Below, one piece after another: positions 1-4,569 of a stretch of 4,695 nucleotides of DNA; position 1 is the stretch's first letter, and each line of letters opens with the position of its first letter. Origin of the DNA: a virus (taxonomy: Duplodnaviria > Heunggongvirae > Uroviricota > Caudoviricetes); the IMG/VR virus record IMGVR_UViG_2541047874_000001, one strand, 5' to 3'. Made by a program: the position numbers and the translations under genes. Below the pieces are notes generated by a model. It saw only the letters and a program-made list of their open reading frames with translations, was not told the origin of the DNA and ran no database searches.

Positions 1-1
1 A

Positions 2-592
2 GAACGCCGTGATCTGTTGAATAACGTTCTGCGCATTGGTGGTTTTATGACACCAAAAGGGAAGCCTAAAGTGCCGGAAGCACTGTTTAAAAACATCTGC
101 GACTCTCTCGGCCTAAAAACAGGAAAACGTCGCGGCAGAGATGGCGATAAGCGCCCGACATTGCGTTTTGTTGAGCCTGAGTCTGTAGCATTTATGCTTG
201 ATATTCTTGCGCAACGTCAGGAGGACGGTATGACGTTGAAAGCTCGCAAGGCGGAAAAATCAACGACCGAAGTGGATCGCGATTTGTCATTAAATATATA
301 TATGAATGGTGAAACGCGATCCACAAACACGGTGGAACAGGATTCCCCTCGTTCAGCTATATCACAGGCTTTGGCCGTATTGCCGGTGGCTGTTCCTGAG
401 TCCTGGGCGATGAGTGCTCTGCCATCAGCTGAACTGGAATCTATCAGGGGGTGGTCAGTTGACAGCATCGCATACACGTTTGCAGCCCTTTATATGACTG
501 AGTTTATGGATTTGCTGTCCGGTCATGAGATTAAGTTGCTGAAGGCTTTTATAGGCCCACGACATGCCAGCGATGAGTTTTGTGTAGTTTAG
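2..592 (+). CDS. 3' end of a larger ORF truncated by the window edge; probably C-terminus of a RepA-like replication (primase/helicase) protein. A stand-alone 181-aa protein starting at ATG 47 cannot be excluded
   Basis: Frame 2 is open from position 2 with no stop until TAG at 590..592. The listed TTG start at 17 has no SD. ATG at 47 is preceded by a weak GGTGG. I see no recognisable catalytic motif in these 196 residues, so the product call rests on synteny with N15 (repA adjacent to the antirepressor locus, same strand), not on sequence recognition. Confidence 0.45.
   Translation, partial: ERRDLLNNVLRIGGFMTPKGKPKVPEALFKNICDSLGLKTGKRRGRDGDKRPTLRFVEPESVAFMLDILAQRQEDGMTLKARKAEKSTTEVDRDLSLNIYMNGETRSTNTVEQDSPRSAISQALAVLPVAVPESWAMSALPSAELESIRGWSVDSIAYTFAALYMTEFMDLLSGHEIKLLKAFIGPRHASDEFCVV
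273..323. repeat. 9-bp inverted repeat (TGGATCGCG 273..281 / CGCGATCCA 315..323) flanking an AT-rich spacer with an (AT)5 tract at 294..303; each arm carries a GATC site
   Basis: Read directly from the sequence; it lies inside the coding region of the 2..592 ORF. One such 9-bp inverted repeat within 50 bp is roughly expected by chance in 4.7 kb, so significance is modest. Confidence 0.3.
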
Positions 593-717
593 AGGGTAGA
601 AGCGTGGGAATGATGCAAGAGTGCCTCGTTTTGATTGAAGGGTATGAGCCGTATGTTGTTAACGTCAGCAGAATGGCTGATGCTAAAAAAGTTGATTGAG
701 TTGTGGAAGGAGTATTT

Positions 718-942
718 ATGAACTGTAACAAAAATGAAGAAACTCGCCTGGTTTGGACGGTAGTCATCGGAGATAAAAAGGGCGGTGAAGAGCCTCATTT
801 TGATTATTCTGTGGCTTTGCAGGCTCTCATCCTTGAAGCGCAGAGATACCAACAAGAGATGCAGAAGAACCCTCAACTGGAACCTCGACCAATTGGCCTA
901 TTCTGCGAGCGAGTATCAGCGGCGGAACTCCCTGATATCTGA
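718..942 (+). CDS. Hypothetical small protein (74 aa), no recognisable domain
   Basis: ATG at 718 preceded by a strong SD, GGAAGGAG (706..713), with 4-nt spacing; stop TGA at 940..942. The listed GTG at 703 overlaps the SD and is a less likely start. The overlapping +ORF 785..970 has no SD and is treated as a shadow ORF. Confidence 0.55.
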   Translation: MNCNKNEETRLVWTVVIGDKKGGEEPHFDYSVALQALILEAQRYQQEMQKNPQLEPRPIGLFCERVSAAELPDI

Positions 943-1043: not shown

Positions 1044-1073
1044 TTGACGTGTGCGTCGTTTTGACGGTAAAGT
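1044..1073 (+). promoter_or_regulatory. Candidate sigma70 promoter for the leader and antirepressor operon (-35 TTGACG 1044..1049, 18-bp spacer, -10 TAAAGT 1068..1073)
   Basis: Hexamer match only. A second TTGACG sits at 1061..1066, and an alternative extended -10-like TGTGTATATAAG sits at 1160..1171 just after the terminator. The true transcription start cannot be decided from sequence. Confidence 0.25.
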
Positions 1074-1135
1074 TACTCCGCTGCGGTAAATCCCGCAGCC
1101 GGGCGTGAGAACCCGAATATCCCAAGCGACGCACA

Positions 1136-1158
1136 ACACGCGCCAGCGTGTTTTTTTT
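1136..1158 (+). terminator. Rho-independent terminator
   Basis: Perfect 6-bp stem ACACGC (1136..1141) / GCGTGT (1146..1151), 4-nt loop GCCA, immediately followed by a run of Ts through 1158. Confidence 0.75.
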
Positions 1159-1190
1159 GTGTGTATATAAGCCTGCGCATATCCGAATTA

Positions 1191-1267
1191 TGGTGGCTCA
1201 GGCGGGGCAGCCGAAAGGCTGGCCGGTATCGTTTGGGCCGGTATTCTCACCCCCGTCTGGGCTACCA
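1191..1267 (+). ncRNA. Candidate structured regulatory RNA of the phage P1 c4 / P4 CI / N15 CA antisense class (about 77 nt)
   Basis: Closing helix 1191..1207 with 1251..1267 (17 pairs: 14 Watson-Crick plus 3 G-U). Inner hairpin CAGCC-GAAA-GGCTG (1208..1221) with a GNRA tetraloop. A second short CCGG-based hairpin (1223..1241). A single-stranded stretch UAUUCUCAC (1242..1250) whose core TTCTCAC (1244..1250) is complementary to GTGAGAA inside both copies of the direct repeat GCGTGAGAAC (1103..1112 and 1278..1287). Exact RNA ends are unknown; an alternative is a short RNA from about 1081 to the terminator at 1158. Confidence 0.4.
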
Positions 1268-1327
1268 CCCCCTTAGAGCGTGAGAACTCTGGTGGTAGCA
1301 CTGTTCTTCCAAACAAGAGTGCATACC

Positions 1328-1492
1328 ATGTTCAAATTCAAATTTGCGGCAGTCGTTCGCACAGACAAAAAGTCACACATCCATCATCTTTCCACTATCG
1401 CGTCATCTGAACGGGAAGCTCGTCGCCAGTTCGCCAGCCGGTTTGTCCTGGTATTGTCTGCCCGTATTCCGGTGCGCGAGGTGGCTGCATGA
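1328..1492 (+). CDS. Hypothetical small basic protein (54 aa), first gene of the antirepressor operon; occupies the position of icd in P1/N15-type immunity operons
   Basis: ATG at 1328 with a weak SD, AAGAG (1315..1319); stop TGA at 1490..1492 overlaps the next start (ATGA). The listed GTG start at 1280 lies inside the structured leader and is judged less likely. The icd assignment is positional only. Confidence 0.45.
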   Translation: MFKFKFAAVVRTDKKSHIHHLSTIASSEREARRQFASRFVLVLSARIPVREVAA

Positions 1493-1722
1493 ATCAGGTA
1501 AAAATGAACACTGTTGGCCTGCTGGAATCGTTGGATGAACGTCTGGCTCAGGTCTATGCGCTTGTGTCATCAGCCCATCGTACAGTCTCCAGTTGTGAGG
1601 CGTCGATTTATCTCTCAGAAGCCGGGAAGCTCCTTCAAATCGCGTGTGAGTTGACACACAAAGCACAGGGGTATTCAGCATCTCTCTCGTCGCAATTGCA
1701 GCACAATAAGGAGGCCAAATGA
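1489..1722 (+). CDS. Hypothetical protein (77 aa), middle gene of the antirepressor operon (antA position)
   Basis: ATG at 1489 preceded by GAGGTGG (1478..1484); ATGA overlap with the upstream stop and again with the downstream start at 1719, indicating translational coupling. Confidence 0.6.
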   Translation: MNQVKMNTVGLLESLDERLAQVYALVSSAHRTVSSCEASIYLSEAGKLLQIACELTHKAQGYSASLSSQLQHNKEAK

Positions 1723-2501
1723 GCGCGTTAGCTGTATTTTCGTTTCAGGAAGAGCATCAGGTTCGTGTAGTGATGATTGATAGCGATCCGTGGTTTGTAG
1801 CGGCTGATGTTTGTAATGCCATCGGGATTATCAATCATCGTGATGCTGTTGGTAAGTTGGATGAAGACGAAAAGGGGGTCGGTTCAACAGACACCCTTGG
1901 AGGTAAACAGGGAGTGACAATTATCAACGAATCCGGCCTCTATACCCTAATCCTCCGCTGCCGTGATGCGGTGAAGCAAGGCACAACAGCTTGGCGGTTT
2001 CGCAAATGGGTAACGAACGAAGTCTTGCCCTCTATTCGCAAAAATGGAGAGTACGTTTACATCGAGCCTGAGCCAATGCGAGCAGCAGAGCCGTTGAACT
2101 GGAGGCAGAAAGAGTATCTGCGAGGGCTGATTAACGATATAGCACAAAGTTTTCAGTACCGAAATGCCTGGATTAGCGGTGTATGGTTAGCTTTGCGTCG
2201 GGCGTGTCGTAATCCGTCCCCGAACCCCATAACTGTTGATGATTTGCCAGCAATTACGGCAGAACTGCGCCGGATTTTGACGGCTGCTGAGTCGGCATTG
2301 GGGAACATGCGCACGTATGAACGAGAGTTGTTGCGTGATGTTGTTCGTGGGGGTAGGCGGAGTATGTCGTGTGGTGATTTGCCCATCACCGATATTAACT
2401 CTGATCTGGAAAAGGCGTTACCCGCGCATTTTGAACTGGCAGTTCAAAAACTTGAGCAGTTATCCGCGCAGTTAAAGCCAGCAGAAATCACTAATAAATA
2501 G
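1719..2501 (+). CDS. Bro-N domain protein, phage antirepressor-like (260 aa)
   Basis: ATG at 1719 preceded by AAGGAGG (1708..1714). The N-terminal ~110 aa match the Bro-N pattern as I know it (FSFQ..VRVV..D..PWFVAADVCNAIGI...DAVGKLDEDEKG...INESGLYTLILR...A..F.KWVTNEVLPSIRKNGEYVY). The C-terminal ~130 aa do not look like the usual KilA-C/ANT domain to me. Confidence 0.85.
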   Translation: MSALAVFSFQEEHQVRVVMIDSDPWFVAADVCNAIGIINHRDAVGKLDEDEKGVGSTDTLGGKQGVTIINESGLYTLILRCRDAVKQGTTAWRFRKWVTNEVLPSIRKNGEYVYIEPEPMRAAEPLNWRQKEYLRGLINDIAQSFQYRNAWISGVWLALRRACRNPSPNPITVDDLPAITAELRRILTAAESALGNMRTYERELLRDVVRGGRRSMSCGDLPITDINSDLEKALPAHFELAVQKLEQLSAQLKPAEITNK

Positions 2502-2637: not shown

Positions 2638-2663
2638 AAGGCACCGATTAATTCGGTGCCTTT
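2638..2663. terminator. Bidirectional terminator-like hairpin between the convergent antirepressor and protelomerase genes
   Basis: 10-bp perfect stem AAGGCACCGA (2638..2647) / TCGGTGCCTT (2653..2662), 5-nt loop TTAAT; 11 bp past the protelomerase stop (TAA, complement of 2674..2676) and 137 bp past the Bro-N gene stop. The T-tracts are short (3 Ts on +), so termination is likely partial. Confidence 0.5.
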
Positions 2664-2673
2664 AACGTATGCT

Positions 2674-4569
2674 TTAGCCGAAATATGTCAGCCATGCTAA
2701 CTGCATTGCTGACATGGGGCTGTTTGCACTGCCTGACCACGCATAATTCTGGCCATTATAATGAAACTCGACAACGTATGAGCCATCACCAATATTTCTC
2801 ACTGGCTTAAATACCGGCTTAGATACAGGCGAAGAAGGTGCAGGCGGTTGCTGTTCTTCTACGCTCTCTTCCTCTTCCTCTTCCTCTATCTCAATTTCGT
2901 CGTCATCCAGATCGTCATCCTCTGATAATTCATCCGCCAGTTCAGGTATTGCTTCCAGTTCTTCTTCGTCAGGCATAACGATTTCTGGAGTATCTATTTT
3001 CAGTTGCCATTGTCCGTTTTCGCCAACAAATTGCCCCAGAGCATCAGCAGCAAATTCCAGGTATCGACTAATCATTGTTGGGCTAAATTTGAACGCTCTT
3101 AGAGTGCTGTTCGTGATTTTTATAGAGGGGTCCTGCTCTACCAGCTGCTTAACTGTGTTATGCAGACGAACCCCGGCATCTCCTCTGGCGAATCCAGGCA
3201 TTTCGTCATCAAGCTGCTGCAATGCTTCCAGCCTGGTATTTTCGTTTCCAGTATTTGGCCTCCATGTCTTTGAGAAGTTGGCCAGCTTGAATTGCTTATA
3301 GTGTAATTGAGTGTTTTCATCGTCATGGCCTAAGATTTCCATAAAGAAAACATCCTCATCTACGTTTTTCCAACGAGGATCTACGCGGAAAAACATTTCA
3401 TACGCAATACGGGCATAAATAGCACGACTATCTTTATAAACACGGCGGTCATCTTTGAAAAATGATTTAACCCACGGGTTAAAAGCCTTTGCTAATATGG
3501 CATTAATACGTCCGTTTTCAGAGCGTGTGTCGTTATCTCCATAACCTTTAACGACATCATCAAAATCAGATGCTGCTGGGCATGAGCGAAGTACATTTAT
3601 TAAATAAACAAATGTTTTTGCTTCGCATAATGTATATATTTTTCTGGTTATATCATCAGAAGTTCTTTTTTTAGCTTGGCCTAAAAAATCAACGGTATAC
3701 TTACCAGAAACAGTAAATGTACCTTGATACATAATCTCAATCATTCGTCTTCCTGACAATGCAGCAAGTGCAAATGCCAAAGGAGCCATACCTGAACGAG
3801 TGTTTAGATTATTTAATGTAGCAGGGCTATTTATAATATCGTAAATAGCTTGCATATATTTAGGGTAATCAATGACCACCACGTTACGTTTCTTATTGTG
3901 CAGAACGTCCGCCCATCGTTGCTGGATAGATGCGCGTTCGGCAGGGCTTAGTTGAAGATGATAGAGAATCTCATGGTTAACTTTTAGCTGATTCAACTCC
4001 TCAAGCAAGGCAGATCCTTGCTGTAGTAATTTATATAAATAATCGCGCTTATCTTTCCAGTTATCGCTAGTTAAATCAGAAATGGCGAATTGCCACTCTT
4101 TATATTTATTTGATAATTTTAATAACTTATTATGACTTTTGTTATCACCAATTCTGATATTAGATAAATCTTCTGATAAAGGGAGAATTAATTTTAATTT
4201 TGCCTGTAAAGCTGACATTCTCTGTCGAATATCGGCAGCAGGTAGAGAAAGCCATGACAATAGCTCCTCATTATATAAAGGATACTTTTCAGATAGGCGA
4301 TGTATATTTTTTTCAAAGCTATGATGAAGTTTATCATCAAACCGTTTTCTGGCCCTGCTCATATAGGCATTGAATGTGTTGGCTGTAATTCTTTTTTCTA
4401 ATCCTTTCCCCCTAAACTTTCGCTTGTCATTAAATAATGCATTTTTAAATTTTAATGCAACAGCCTTTATTTTTTTTGTTTTTTCCCCTTGAGGACGGTC
4501 AGAGTTATCTATTGACTCAACATCGCTAACAAGTGAGTTTATTAATTCACCGATTTTTACTTTGCTCAT
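2674..4569 (-). CDS. telN: Protelomerase (telomere resolvase), TelN/TelK family, 631 aa
   Basis: The whole ORF reads as the TelN/TelK family from memory (MSKVKIGELIN..., NALFNDKRKFRGKGLEKRITANTFNAYMSRARKRFDDKLHHSF, SGRRMIEIM, RINAILAKAFNPWVKSF, KDSRAIYARIAYEMFFRVDPRW, ILGHDDENTQLHYKQFKLANF). 631 aa equals the length I recall for N15 TelN. The tyrosine in LHYKQF is residue 424 (codon TAT, complement of 3298..3300), the reported catalytic position; Arg275 and His415 are also present. SD GGAGAGGA lies 5 nt upstream of the ATG on the - strand. Confidence 0.93.
   Translation of the reverse strand: MSKVKIGELINSLVSDVESIDNSDRPQGEKTKKIKAVALKFKNALFNDKRKFRGKGLEKRITANTFNAYMSRARKRFDDKLHHSFEKNIHRLSEKYPLYNEELLSWLSLPAADIRQRMSALQAKLKLILPLSEDLSNIRIGDNKSHNKLLKLSNKYKEWQFAISDLTSDNWKDKRDYLYKLLQQGSALLEELNQLKVNHEILYHLQLSPAERASIQQRWADVLHNKKRNVVVIDYPKYMQAIYDIINSPATLNNLNTRSGMAPLAFALAALSGRRMIEIMYQGTFTVSGKYTVDFLGQAKKRTSDDITRKIYTLCEAKTFVYLINVLRSCPAASDFDDVVKGYGDNDTRSENGRINAILAKAFNPWVKSFFKDDRRVYKDSRAIYARIAYEMFFRVDPRWKNVDEDVFFMEILGHDDENTQLHYKQFKLANFSKTWRPNTGNENTRLEALQQLDDEMPGFARGDAGVRLHNTVKQLVEQDPSIKITNSTLRAFKFSPTMISRYLEFAADALGQFVGENGQWQLKIDTPEIVMPDEEELEAIPELADELSEDDDLDDDEIEIEEEEEEESVEEQQPPAPSSPVSKPVFKPVRNIGDGSYVVEFHYNGQNYAWSGSANSPMSAMQLAWLTYFG
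2851..2970 (-). other. Poly-acidic low-complexity tract within the protelomerase (residues about 534..573, including EEEEEEE), encoded by CTC/TTC repeats on the + strand
   Basis: Translation DEEELEAIPELADELSEDDDLDDDEIEIEEEEEEESVEE; the + strand reads ctcttcctcttcctcttcctc around 2861..2885. Confidence 0.8.

Follow-up and report, generated by a model that had tools for sequence, protein, structure and literature searches.

An Orthologue of the N15 immA Operon in an N15-like Telomere Phage: Probable Control by a C4-Type RNA and a Conserved, Unmodelled Core in AntB

We analyzed a 4,695-nucleotide stretch of phage DNA (IMG/VR record IMGVR_UViG_2541047874_000001; hereafter the window) that carries three overlapping genes. 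Homology identifies these genes as icd, antA, and antB, the orthologue of the published immA ("anti-immunity") operon of N15 and phiKO2. The operon is already known and not new, and the original prediction, made from the DNA alone, was mistaken in framing it as an unrecognized one. The three genes very probably belong to a secondary-immunity (immA) unit made up of a promoter, an IsrK-like leader with a terminator, a C4/CA antisense RNA, icd, antA, and antB. This assignment draws on genomic identity, orthology to N15, the phiKO2 gene names, the literature, Rfam matches, covariation, the retained junctions and Shine–Dalgarno sequences (SDs), the logic of P1 immI, and a parallel in Gifsy-1. In N15 and phiKO2, immA is described as the operon encoding AntA, Icd, and AntB, with the function of AntB not elucidated (PMC4488713; PMC10612081).

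Results

The window is 96.8% identical over its whole length to Escherichia phage YDC107_1 (Ravinvirus), and this genomic identity marks it as part of an N15-like telomere phage, a linear plasmid prophage of E. coli. The operon is flanked by repA and by telN, as in N15 (Table 1), and the layout of repA, immA unit, and telN agrees with that of N15, phiKO2, and YDC107_1. Similar copies are found in N15-like plasmid records among E. coli RefSeq genomes: the query is covered to 80% or more in five genomes, and 24 of 662 matching places are plasmid-borne. The order of icd, antA, and antB and their overlaps are those of N15 (BLASTP E values of 2e-37, 7e-30, and 8e-150, respectively), and the phiKO2 record names its three orthologues by their similarity to N15 genes, namely icd, the antirepressor AntA, and the auxiliary antirepressor AntB. 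Seven related loci were compared with the window: YDC107_1, N15, phiKO2, KpLi5, NAR688, Kpn74, and PhiR46_1.

Table 1. Positions of the immA elements and flanking genes in the window
Feature	Position (nt)	Strand	Remarks
repA, 3' end	1-592		flank of the operon, as in N15
Promoter-like site	1044..1073	+	TTGACG, 18 nt, TAAAGT; candidate immA promoter
Two leader hairpins resembling the C4 a1/b1 target element	1067..1119	+	second loop bears b1
Target b1	1105-1111	+	GUGAGAA
IsrK-like leader RNA	1080..1156	+	ends in an intrinsic terminator
Leader terminator stem	1135-1152	+	precedes a T run
C4/CA-type antisense RNA	1186..1272	+	putative secondary immunity repressor
Loop b'	1244-1250	+	single-stranded 7-mer UUCUCAC
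Target b2	1280..1286	+	GUGAGAA
SD of icd	1315-1319	+	AAGAG
icd	1328..1492	+	54 aa, Icd-like; putative host cell division inhibitor
SD at junction 1	1478-1483	+	GAGGTG
Junction 1	1489-1492	+	ATGA
antA	1489..1722	+	77 aa, orthologue of N15 gp31 (AntA antirepressor)
SD at junction 2	1708-1714	+	AAGGAGG
Junction 2	1719-1722	+	ATGA
antB	1719..2501	+	260 aa, orthologue of N15 gp30 (AntB)
AntB Bro-N (PF02498)	1758-2030	+	aa 14-104
AntB-C helical core, conserved	2073-2363	+	aa ~119-215
AntB terminal helix	2424-2471	+	aa 236-251, after a low-confidence linker
Hairpin, 10 bp, GC-rich	2638..2662		between convergent antB and telN; candidate bidirectional terminator
telN (protelomerase)	2674-4569	-	flank of the operon, as in N15

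The three genes had been predicted to form a translationally coupled unit joined by ATGA overlaps, each with its own SD, and both the ORFs and the junctions are borne out. The gap from GAGG to the ATG is 7 nt at the first junction and the spacer is 4 nt at the second, whereas icd itself is preceded by a weaker SD 8 nt 5' of its ATG. All seven relatives retain the two 4-nt overlaps with their SDs despite saturated synonymous sites (dS >1), and the overlaps are therefore beyond what chance would preserve. All three genes are under purifying selection (dN/dS relative to N15: icd 0.032, antA 0.090, antB 0.070).

A possible objection is that the two small ORFs are not genes, that their conservation reflects RNA structure or RNA read-through, and that only the Bro-N gene is translated. 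Older annotations do mix RNA and protein at this locus: overlap with the C4 RNA is seen for N15 gene 32, for phiKO2 gp30, and for CDSs that PGAP calls "ash family protein". The substitution pattern refutes this explanation, to which we give practically no credence, as icd differs from its N15 counterpart by 23 synonymous and 4 nonsynonymous changes and the dN/dS of antA is similarly low. The start codons, SDs, and stop–start overlaps are kept in the seven relatives, the small proteins have matches to an Icd HMM and to PHROGs, and a 40%-identical AntA homologue occurs in an equal three-gene arrangement at a distant locus. Conservation and coding-type substitution of the small ORFs were among the features on which the original prediction had staked itself, and both are present.

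The 54-aa and 77-aa proteins had been left unassigned, with only their positions suggesting icd and antA; homology now supplies both identities. The 54-aa protein matches the NCBIfam model NF033153 ("Icd-like") with 67 bits against a cutoff of 25, and it is 94% identical over 54 aa to its N15 orthologue, the C-terminal part of gp32. Inhibition of division is a prediction from the family. P1 Icd scores 52.6 bits on the same model; pairwise BLASTP of the two proteins gives no alignment, and the link between them runs solely through the NF033153 profile. Comparison among relatives places the icd start at ATG 1328. The longer starts GTG-1280 and GTG-1292, as used in YDC107_1 and N15 gene 32, were ruled out because single-nucleotide indels 5' of this ATG break the longer frame.

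AntA is about 59–62% identical to N15 gp31 and matches phrog_6301 (E = 1e-36) and phrog_10889, "anti-repressor" (E = 1e-17). Its phiKO2 orthologue is labeled "similar to antirepressor encoded by N15 AntA". A word-indexed homologue search with AntA returned near-identical E. coli proteins only and is uninformative on wider distribution. Pfam family PF08346 ("AntA/AntB antirepressor") uses the same names for different proteins, and neither AntA nor AntB of the window matches it. In RefSeq E. coli plasmids, the 77-aa antA is still annotated as "hypothetical protein".

The unit does not start at 1328, as originally supposed, but about 280 bp upstream; the promoter-like site, the IsrK-like leader with its terminator, and the C4/CA RNA had been overlooked. 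The promoter-like site, a candidate upstream immA promoter, has 9 of 12 consensus matches in our scan, and TTGACGTG and the next block, GGTAAAGT, are conserved in six of six aligned relatives. The leader scores 67 bits with Rfam isrK (RF01394; gathering score 50; E = 2.7e-13) and has a fold energy of -30 kcal/mol (z = -2.9); each of the seven relatives carries it. Its terminator was detected by the terminator scan, and the N15 and phiKO2 records annotate a putative terminator at the same position. The two leader hairpins reach 43.3 bits with Rfam c4-a1b1 (RF03163) in the window, under the gathering score of 46.7, and score above gathering in phiKO2, NAR688, and KpLi5.

The antisense RNA matches Rfam C4 (RF01695) over its full length, scoring 75.2 bits (gathering score 45; E = 5e-14), and has a minimum free energy of -50.2 kcal/mol. 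It is present in seven of seven relatives, and the N15 record U63086 names the locus "cA: secondary immunity repressor". Annotation records place CDSs labeled "ash family protein" or "transcriptional repressor" across the real C4 RNA gene.

The loop b' is exactly complementary to target copies on both sides of the RNA gene, b1 upstream and b2 downstream, the latter 42 nt before the icd start codon. b1 covaries with b' across the relatives, and three-way covariation of b', b1, and b2 defines four specificities (loop:target): UUCUCAC:GUGAGAA in the window and NAR688, UUGAGA:UCUCAA in N15, UUCCUAC:GUAGGAA in phiKO2 and KpLi5, and UUGCGAA:UUCGCAA in PhiR46_1. An a'/a1/a2 pairing set as in P1 was sought in the window and its relatives, with no convincing covarying candidate. 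Because b2 lies 29 nt 5' of the icd SD, simple occlusion of the ribosome binding site by b2, as annotated for P1, is excluded.

At the other end of the operon, the hairpin between antB and telN has a folding free energy of -18.7 kcal/mol on the plus strand (z = -6.7) and -19.9 kcal/mol on the minus strand (z = -6.0), and it may close the operon. The phiKO2 record places a putative bidirectional terminator at this position. The consensus terminator scan did not call the hairpin, which has a short U-tract.

Among known systems, N15 immA (cA RNA, icd, antA as gene 31, and antB as gene 30) shares with the window gene order, the location between repA and telN, the 4-nt overlaps, the upstream terminator, and a C4-type RNA. 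The two differ in loop and target sequences, which predicts heteroimmunity at the immA level, as well as in the variable cargo region upstream (593-1030), and of the genes antA has diverged most. Phages of Klebsiella hosts have this operon too, again with ATGA junctions, namely phiKO2 (gp29-gp28-gp27, with labels derived from N15), vB_KpnS_KpLi5, and NAR688, at 64–91% protein identity to the window.

Resemblance to P1-type operons, which the original prediction had raised, lies in the logic, and for the payload it is one of function only. P1 immI (c4, icd, ant1/ant2) has a processed C4 RNA, as predicted for the window, together with targets upstream (a1/b1) and downstream (a2/b2) and an antirepressor payload, and its Icd-family first ORF overlaps ant1 by 4 nt just as the window icd overlaps the next gene. 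The P1 immI record notes "repression of icd ant translation" and "icd apparently required for expression of ant". P1 b2 sits directly before icd and is annotated as a translation block, unlike the more distant b2 of the window. The payload proteins themselves are unrelated: the ANT/KilAC domain PF03374 of P1 Ant1 (E = 1e-30) has no match in AntA or AntB of the window at E up to 1, and neither protein has significant BLASTP similarity to Ant1.

In satellite phage P4, the CI RNA region (seqA/seqB/seqC) is 83% identical to window positions 1190-1299, which take in the RNA gene and about 30 nt beyond it. An Icd-like ORF of 50% identity follows it, as in the window, but P4 lacks the antA/antB payload. 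P4 CI RNA acts via premature transcription termination. The window leader is, by its Rfam match, a homologue of IsrK from the isrK-orf45-anrP locus of Salmonella Gifsy-1, in which some transcription passes the leader terminator and expression of an antirepressor-like gene further downstream depends on translational coupling (PMC4825925). The published Gifsy-1 model invokes no C4-type RNA (PMC4825925). The Salmonella loci that we found contain Q, isrK, and C4, followed by a Bro-N/AntB-C gene, and are without icd or antA.

AntB is about 73–75% identical to N15 gp30 over its full length. Its predicted Bro-N domain is confirmed by a match to PF02498 (E = 1.2e-19; 71.2 bits against a cutoff of 25.6; model positions 1–96). 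The C-terminal half was also correctly described as unlike KilA-C/ANT, given that P1 Ant1 matches PF03374 and AntB does not. The further description of this half as unrecognized holds in that it has no match in Pfam, NCBIfam, the PDB, or a fold library, and fails in that it is 81.5% identical to the same region of N15 AntB. Residues 115–260 gave no Pfam match at E up to 1, the known Bro-N/KilA-N partners (PF03374, ORF6C PF10552, P22_AR_C PF10548, and ORF11CD3) included, and the C-terminal 146 aa alone matched no PHROG family. No NCBIfam model covers the AntB-C core in a scan of 97 family members, and a sequence search of the PDB with the AntB profile gave a best E value of 0.46. AlphaFold2 models of AntB (pLDDT 70.5 and 71.7) contain helices at residues 128–142, 148–162, 173–210, and 236–251. 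Foldseek comparison of the full-length model with the PDB yielded nothing at E <0.001, the best match being the Mbp1 DNA-binding domain (E = 0.15), and nothing significant among the BFVD viral structures.

A profile search found the AntB-C core in 154 cluster representatives, which form an unmodelled family. The core is fused to six antirepressor-type N-terminal domains (Bro-N, ORF6N, PF08346 AntA, KilA-N, Rha, and P22_AR_N), with PF08346 as an alternative partner in 8 of 97 relatives, and it lies directly 3' of a C4 or sRNA-Xcc1 RNA in eight of ten informative loci. Its pattern is approximately EPL..D..NL.R.VW.I...F....AW.QG.W.ALR.ATG.PSP.PF.V..LP.LA.ELRRI, and W156, R160, P168, P177, E182, E201, and R210 are near-invariant in hosts from Enterobacterales to Marichromatium. 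That the core might be a diverged ORF6C was also considered and rejected: relatives with three domains have ORF6C ahead of the core, and an hhalign comparison of the core with the ORF6C region yields a probability of 3%. We tentatively propose, as a real possibility short of a probable one, that the AntB-C core is an undescribed effector domain, shuffled between six or more N-terminal modules of the antirepressor type and recurrent as the payload of C4- and sRNA-Xcc1-controlled cassettes.

Two other roles for AntB were weighed. AntB could be the real antirepressor, its Bro-N and C-terminal domains binding and inactivating the primary repressor CB, with the 77-aa AntA as a chaperone or adaptor. 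RefSeq labels N15 gp30 as "anti-repressor Ant", and PHROGs put AntB in "anti-repressor Ant" families (E = 1e-50), but these PHROG labels are homology-transferred via the Bro-N half only, with matches mostly in residues 1–125. In other prophages, AntB-C-core proteins stand alone, without icd or antA, directly 3' of C4 or sRNA-Xcc1 RNAs, which favors this role because such lone genes occupy the antirepressor position of P1-type modules. Secondary literature (PMC4488713; PMC10612081) and the phiKO2 record nevertheless give antirepressor activity to AntA and treat AntB as auxiliary or of unknown function, and a gene of Yersinia phage vB_YenS_P840, there named antA, alone abolished PY54 lysogenization (PMC10612081). 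Moreover, some relatives do without antB: in PhiR46_1, where icd and antA are retained, antB is almost entirely lost, with a 54-aa stub left, and PY54 has no antB (PMC4488713). We consider an antirepressor role for AntB itself quite improbable.

Alternatively, AntB may not act on the repressor at all; it could be a regulator that binds DNA, or a factor directed at the host or acting between phages, and be produced together with the antirepressor solely because the switch from lysogeny to lysis calls for both. Bro-N is generally said to be a DNA-binding module, and the weak best fold match of AntB is to a DNA-binding domain. In addition, the invariant residues of the core are equal in Enterobacterales and Marichromatium, and such invariance across distant hosts fits a conserved AntB partner better than fast-diverging cognate repressors. 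Against this stand the nonsignificance of the fold matches, the absence of a match to PADLOC defense models for the window proteins scanned, and the phiKO2 label of auxiliary antirepressor; we judge this role unlikely as well.

Discussion

The reading that we prefer is that of an immA switch in which AntA acts on the primary repressor and AntB has an auxiliary part. From work on P1, P4, N15, and Gifsy-1, we infer RNA processing, a mode of repression, and activities for Icd, AntA, and AntB as follows. Transcription from the upstream promoter would mostly end at the leader terminator. Transcripts that read through would contain the C4/CA RNA, which, by analogy, may be excised. The 7-nt loop b' would then pair with b2 just downstream on transcripts of the same type, and this pairing would hold icd-antA-antB off in the lysogen, perhaps by premature termination or by a block of icd translation. 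The leader target b1 could compete for the C4/CA RNA. Once this control is overcome, icd would be translated and ribosomes would reinitiate at both ATGA junctions, so that Icd, AntA, and AntB are produced together. Icd would presumably block cell division, while AntA would inactivate CB, with AntB assisting.

The operon itself contributes little beyond a further example of a locus known from N15 since 1999, whose phiKO2 counterpart was assigned through homology. For annotation, the gain is an identity for a 77-aa "hypothetical" gene and the exposure of CDSs that overlap the C4 RNA. The four immA specificities obtained from covariation serve as a predictor of which telomere phage-plasmids can trigger each other. 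The AntB-C core, an unmodelled domain with a wide distribution and a link to C4- and Xcc1-type RNAs, offers a handle on the function of AntB; its family is worth a Pfam entry, and its conserved residues are concrete targets for mutation. If our tentative reading of AntB-C is true, the activity that these switches have in common would reside in the core and not in the N-terminal module, which varies, and sRNA-Xcc1 would be a second riboregulator of such cassettes.

An immA-Type Operon on an N15-like Element

Megablast against phage records aligned the whole window with Escherichia phage YDC107_1 (genus Ravinvirus) at 96.8% identity and, more weakly, with N15, phiKO2, and other telomere phages. 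The genes flanking the locus in the matching phage records encode the replication protein RepA and the protelomerase TelN, and ~46-kb plasmid records in E. coli RefSeq genomes carry similar copies of the window. Judged from these matches, flanks, and plasmid copies, the window is part of a linear plasmid prophage resembling N15.

Features of the window and the basis for each
Feature	Position	Strand	Basis
Large ORF, 3′ end	to 592	+	
Small ORFs	up to ~942	+	
79-aa ORF in cargo slot	703-942		phrog_21657, function not assigned by PHROG
Non-coding stretch, 385 bp	between ~942 and 1328		
Promoter-like site	1044-1073		consensus scan
a1/b1 target element, sub-threshold	1067-1119		Rfam 43.3 bits, gathering 46.7
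IsrK-like RNA	1080-1156		Rfam 67 bits, gathering 50
b1, loop of second leader hairpin	1105-1111		exact complement of b′
Intrinsic terminator ending IsrK-like RNA	stem 1135-1152 + T run		terminator scan
C4 antisense RNA, complete	1186-1272		Rfam 75.2 bits, gathering 45
b′, unpaired 7-mer of C4 RNA	1244-1250		
b2, just 3′ of C4 RNA	1280-1286		complement of b′
ORF 1 (icd), 54 aa	1328-1492	+	
ORF 2 (antA), 77 aa	1489-1722	+	
ORF 3 (antB), 260 aa	1719-2501	+	
Strong 10-bp hairpin between antB and telN	2638-2662		
telN, 631 aa, convergent	2674-4569	-	

The original prediction described three ORFs joined by ATGA junctions, each with its own Shine–Dalgarno sequence (SD), and inspection bears this out, with GAGGTG (1478-1483) ahead of the first junction and AAGGAGG (1708-1714) ahead of the second. 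Codon-by-codon comparison of orthologues from seven related loci put dN/dS against N15 at 0.032 (icd), 0.090 (antA), and 0.070 (antB), at dS > 1; the small ORFs are thus conserved with coding-type substitution, and both 4-nt overlaps and their SDs are kept in all seven loci. The same order, each gene overlapping the next by 4 nt, recurs in a more distant locus taken from a sequencing-run assembly: a 54-aa Icd-like protein (69 bits), an 80-aa protein with 40% identity to AntA, and a Bro-N protein of 249 aa. Together, these comparative data indicate that icd, antA, and antB are real, coupled genes.

The 54-aa protein matches NCBIfam NF033153, "host cell division inhibitor Icd-like protein" (67 bits, cutoff 25), and shares 94% identity with the matching stretch of N15 gene 32. 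The 77-aa protein has 59% identity with N15 gp31 and matches phrog_6301 and phrog_10889, the latter labelled "anti-repressor", and the 260-aa protein is 73% identical to N15 gp30 over its whole length. In the phiKO2 record, the three orthologues are labelled "similar to inhibitor of cell division encoded by N15 icd", "similar to antirepressor encoded by N15 AntA", and "similar to auxiliary anti-repressor encoded by N15 AntB". The immA anti-immunity unit of N15 and phiKO2 is an operon encoding AntA, Icd, and AntB, the function of AntB being "not elucidated" (PMC4488713; PMC10612081). On the strength of these homologies, labels, and papers, we regard the operon as the orthologue of this published locus and hence as already known. 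The original assignment of icd and antA, made from position, was therefore right, but the prediction missed that the operon was known and overlooked an RNA switch upstream of it. The RefSeq label for the AntA orthologue is still "hypothetical protein".

Positions 593-1030, from repA to the immA promoter, form a variable cargo slot, ~570 bp shorter in the window than in YDC107_1; in Klebsiella relatives, the interval from repA to the protelomerase gene holds genes for bacteriocin ("telocin") and immunity (PMC12042878), and PhiR46_1 has a gene annotated Spackle. The hairpin between antB and telN (-18.7 kcal/mol on one strand and -19.9 on the other, z ~-6 to -7) probably serves as a terminator in both directions, although the consensus terminator scan requires a longer U-tract. 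The YDC107_1 record (CP025712.1, 34494-39782; 6082-11265 of the fetched locus L001) contains antB and the protelomerase gene a second time, in inverted orientation, the latter broken into fragments. The second antB copy is 93% identical to the first at full length, and its C-terminal half is 99.3% identical to that of the window. The inverted copy probably reflects assembly through the hairpin telomere.

An RNA Control Region Upstream of icd

The C4 and IsrK-like elements are found at the same places in all seven relatives. In the window, the 7-nt loop b′ of the C4 RNA reads UUCUCAC, and both targets, b1 in the leader and b2 downstream, read GUGAGAA. An alignment of six elements showed that the three sites co-vary, with four specificities among six telomere phages: b′ and b1/b2 are UUCUCAC and GUGAGAA in the window and Klebsiella phage NAR688, UUGAGA and UCUCAA in N15, UUCCUAC and GUAGGAA in phiKO2 and KpLi5, and UUGCGAA and UUCGCAA in PhiR46_1. 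The window thus shares its specificity with NAR688 and differs from N15. Three sites changing together in this way are what a functional antisense RNA with two targets should show. In the same alignment, the stretch from b2 to the icd SD has indels of one nucleotide; the longer in-frame GTG starts are therefore non-coding, and icd starts at ATG 1328. Several public records annotate protein-coding features (window 1148-1316) over the C4 RNA gene as "transcriptional repressor", "ash family protein", or "putative secondary immunity repressor"; examples are N15 gene 32, phiKO2 gp30, and the RefSeq "ash family protein".

In the closing stem of the C4 RNA, the 3′ strand, GCUACCACC (1260-1268), is complementary to GGUGGUAGC at 1291-1299, which is almost invariant (5 of 6 aligned relatives). 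An alternative hairpin with b2 in its loop (1259-1301; -19.5 kcal/mol, z -2.1) is therefore possible in the unprocessed transcript.

This two-target arrangement has a counterpart in P1, where a1/b1 and a2/b2 sites are annotated. The likeness is one of design and not of payload. P1 Ant1 has an ANT/KilAC domain (PF03374, E 1e-30), and neither AntA nor AntB of the window is similar to it; the two Icd proteins both match NF033153 but give no pairwise BLASTP alignment. P1 also differs in the placement of b2, which in the window is 29 nt upstream of the SD of icd. Given this distance, pairing at b2 is unlikely to act by simple occlusion of the icd ribosome binding site. Termination as in P4, whose RNA region is 83% identical to that of the window, is at least as plausible.

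From these conserved, covarying elements we drew up the most likely working model; how the RNA is processed, how repression acts, and what the proteins do are inferred in it by analogy with the P1 immI record notes, P4, and Gifsy-1 IsrK (PMC4825925). The leader terminator would end most transcripts, and read-through transcripts would yield the processed antisense RNA, whose pairing with b2 would keep icd-antA-antB silent in the lysogen; the leader copy b1 could compete for it. If control failed, icd would be translated and ribosomes would re-initiate at both ATGA junctions, producing the three proteins together. Icd would then arrest division, and AntA would inactivate the primary repressor CB with the assistance of AntB.

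Salmonella prophage contigs (L013 3079-4091, L014, and L015) contain, in this order, a Q antiterminator, an IsrK-like RNA, a C4 RNA, and a Bro-N/AntB-C gene, without icd or antA, and resemble the isrK-orf45-anrP layout of Gifsy-1. The published Gifsy-1 "orf45", with its processed fragment STnc1160, may coincide with an RNA of the C4 type.

A Shared C-Terminal Domain in AntB

Pfam places the predicted Bro-N domain at residues 14-104 of AntB. The C-terminal half, described originally as unlike the usual partner domains, indeed has no Pfam family at E up to 1 and, in isolation, no PHROG match; an AntB profile found nothing among PDB sequences. AlphaFold2 models are of moderate confidence (pLDDT 70.5 at full length; pLDDT 71.7 and pTM 0.65 for residues 115-260), with helices at 128-142, 148-162, 173-210, and 236-251 and a low-confidence linker between, and fold searches with them returned non-specific helical matches only.

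We built a profile from 12 C-terminal halves and searched 1.84 billion cluster representatives exhaustively, obtaining 154 proteins with E ≤ 0.001, of which 60 reached E ≤ 1e-10. Almost all of them cover profile positions ~5-100, corresponding to AntB residues ~119-215 (the AntB-C core). With these homologues and 81.5% identity in N15 AntB, the domain is not an orphan; no Pfam or NCBIfam model covers the core. A Pfam scan of 97 core proteins identified N-terminal Bro-N (49), ORF6N (13), AntA (PF08346; 8), KilA-N (7), Rha (6), and P22_AR_N (4) domains. In three-domain proteins the core comes after ORF6C, and profile-profile comparison of the core with the ORF6C region gave a probability of 3%. 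Among 49 aligned members, at least 92% keep W156, R160, P168, P177, E182, E201, and R210, and P43 proteins of APSE phages have the core at ~26% identity.

The Bro-N half is mosaic among relatives (alignment columns 28-70, residues ~28-66), with at least three unrelated central-segment variants attached to C-terminal halves that hardly differ, which indicates that recombination has taken place within antB. In PhiR46_1 (L005 4103-4267), antB is reduced to a 54-aa stub beside intact icd and antA. A 137-aa Klebsiella protein, P0052, has a DUF5448 N-terminus fused to the final ~70 aa of AntB and looks like the product of a deletion spanning the whole immA locus. Both sequences fit AntB, or the whole locus, being dispensable.

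We scanned the loci of 12 distant core members with Rfam; in two, the upstream DNA was too short for a judgement. In five loci, a C4 RNA immediately precedes the core gene, including Salmonella L013 and L014 (Q, IsrK-like RNA, C4, gene) and the ORF6N-type L021. In three others, two encoding Rha-type proteins and one a Bro-N-type protein, an sRNA-Xcc1 match (L010 1260-1352, L017 2369-2458, and L019 59-149; 56-77 bits) lies 40-45 nt upstream, in the position held elsewhere by C4. Neither RNA was found upstream in two loci. The resulting 8 of 10 informative loci are a small sample, and the association of the core with C4- and Xcc1-type RNAs is suggestive, a lead only.

Loop and target covariation predicts heteroimmunity groups at the level of immA among telomere phages. 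What remains of interest is the unmodelled C-terminal domain of AntB and its association with C4- and Xcc1-type RNAs, which could help explain what AntB does.
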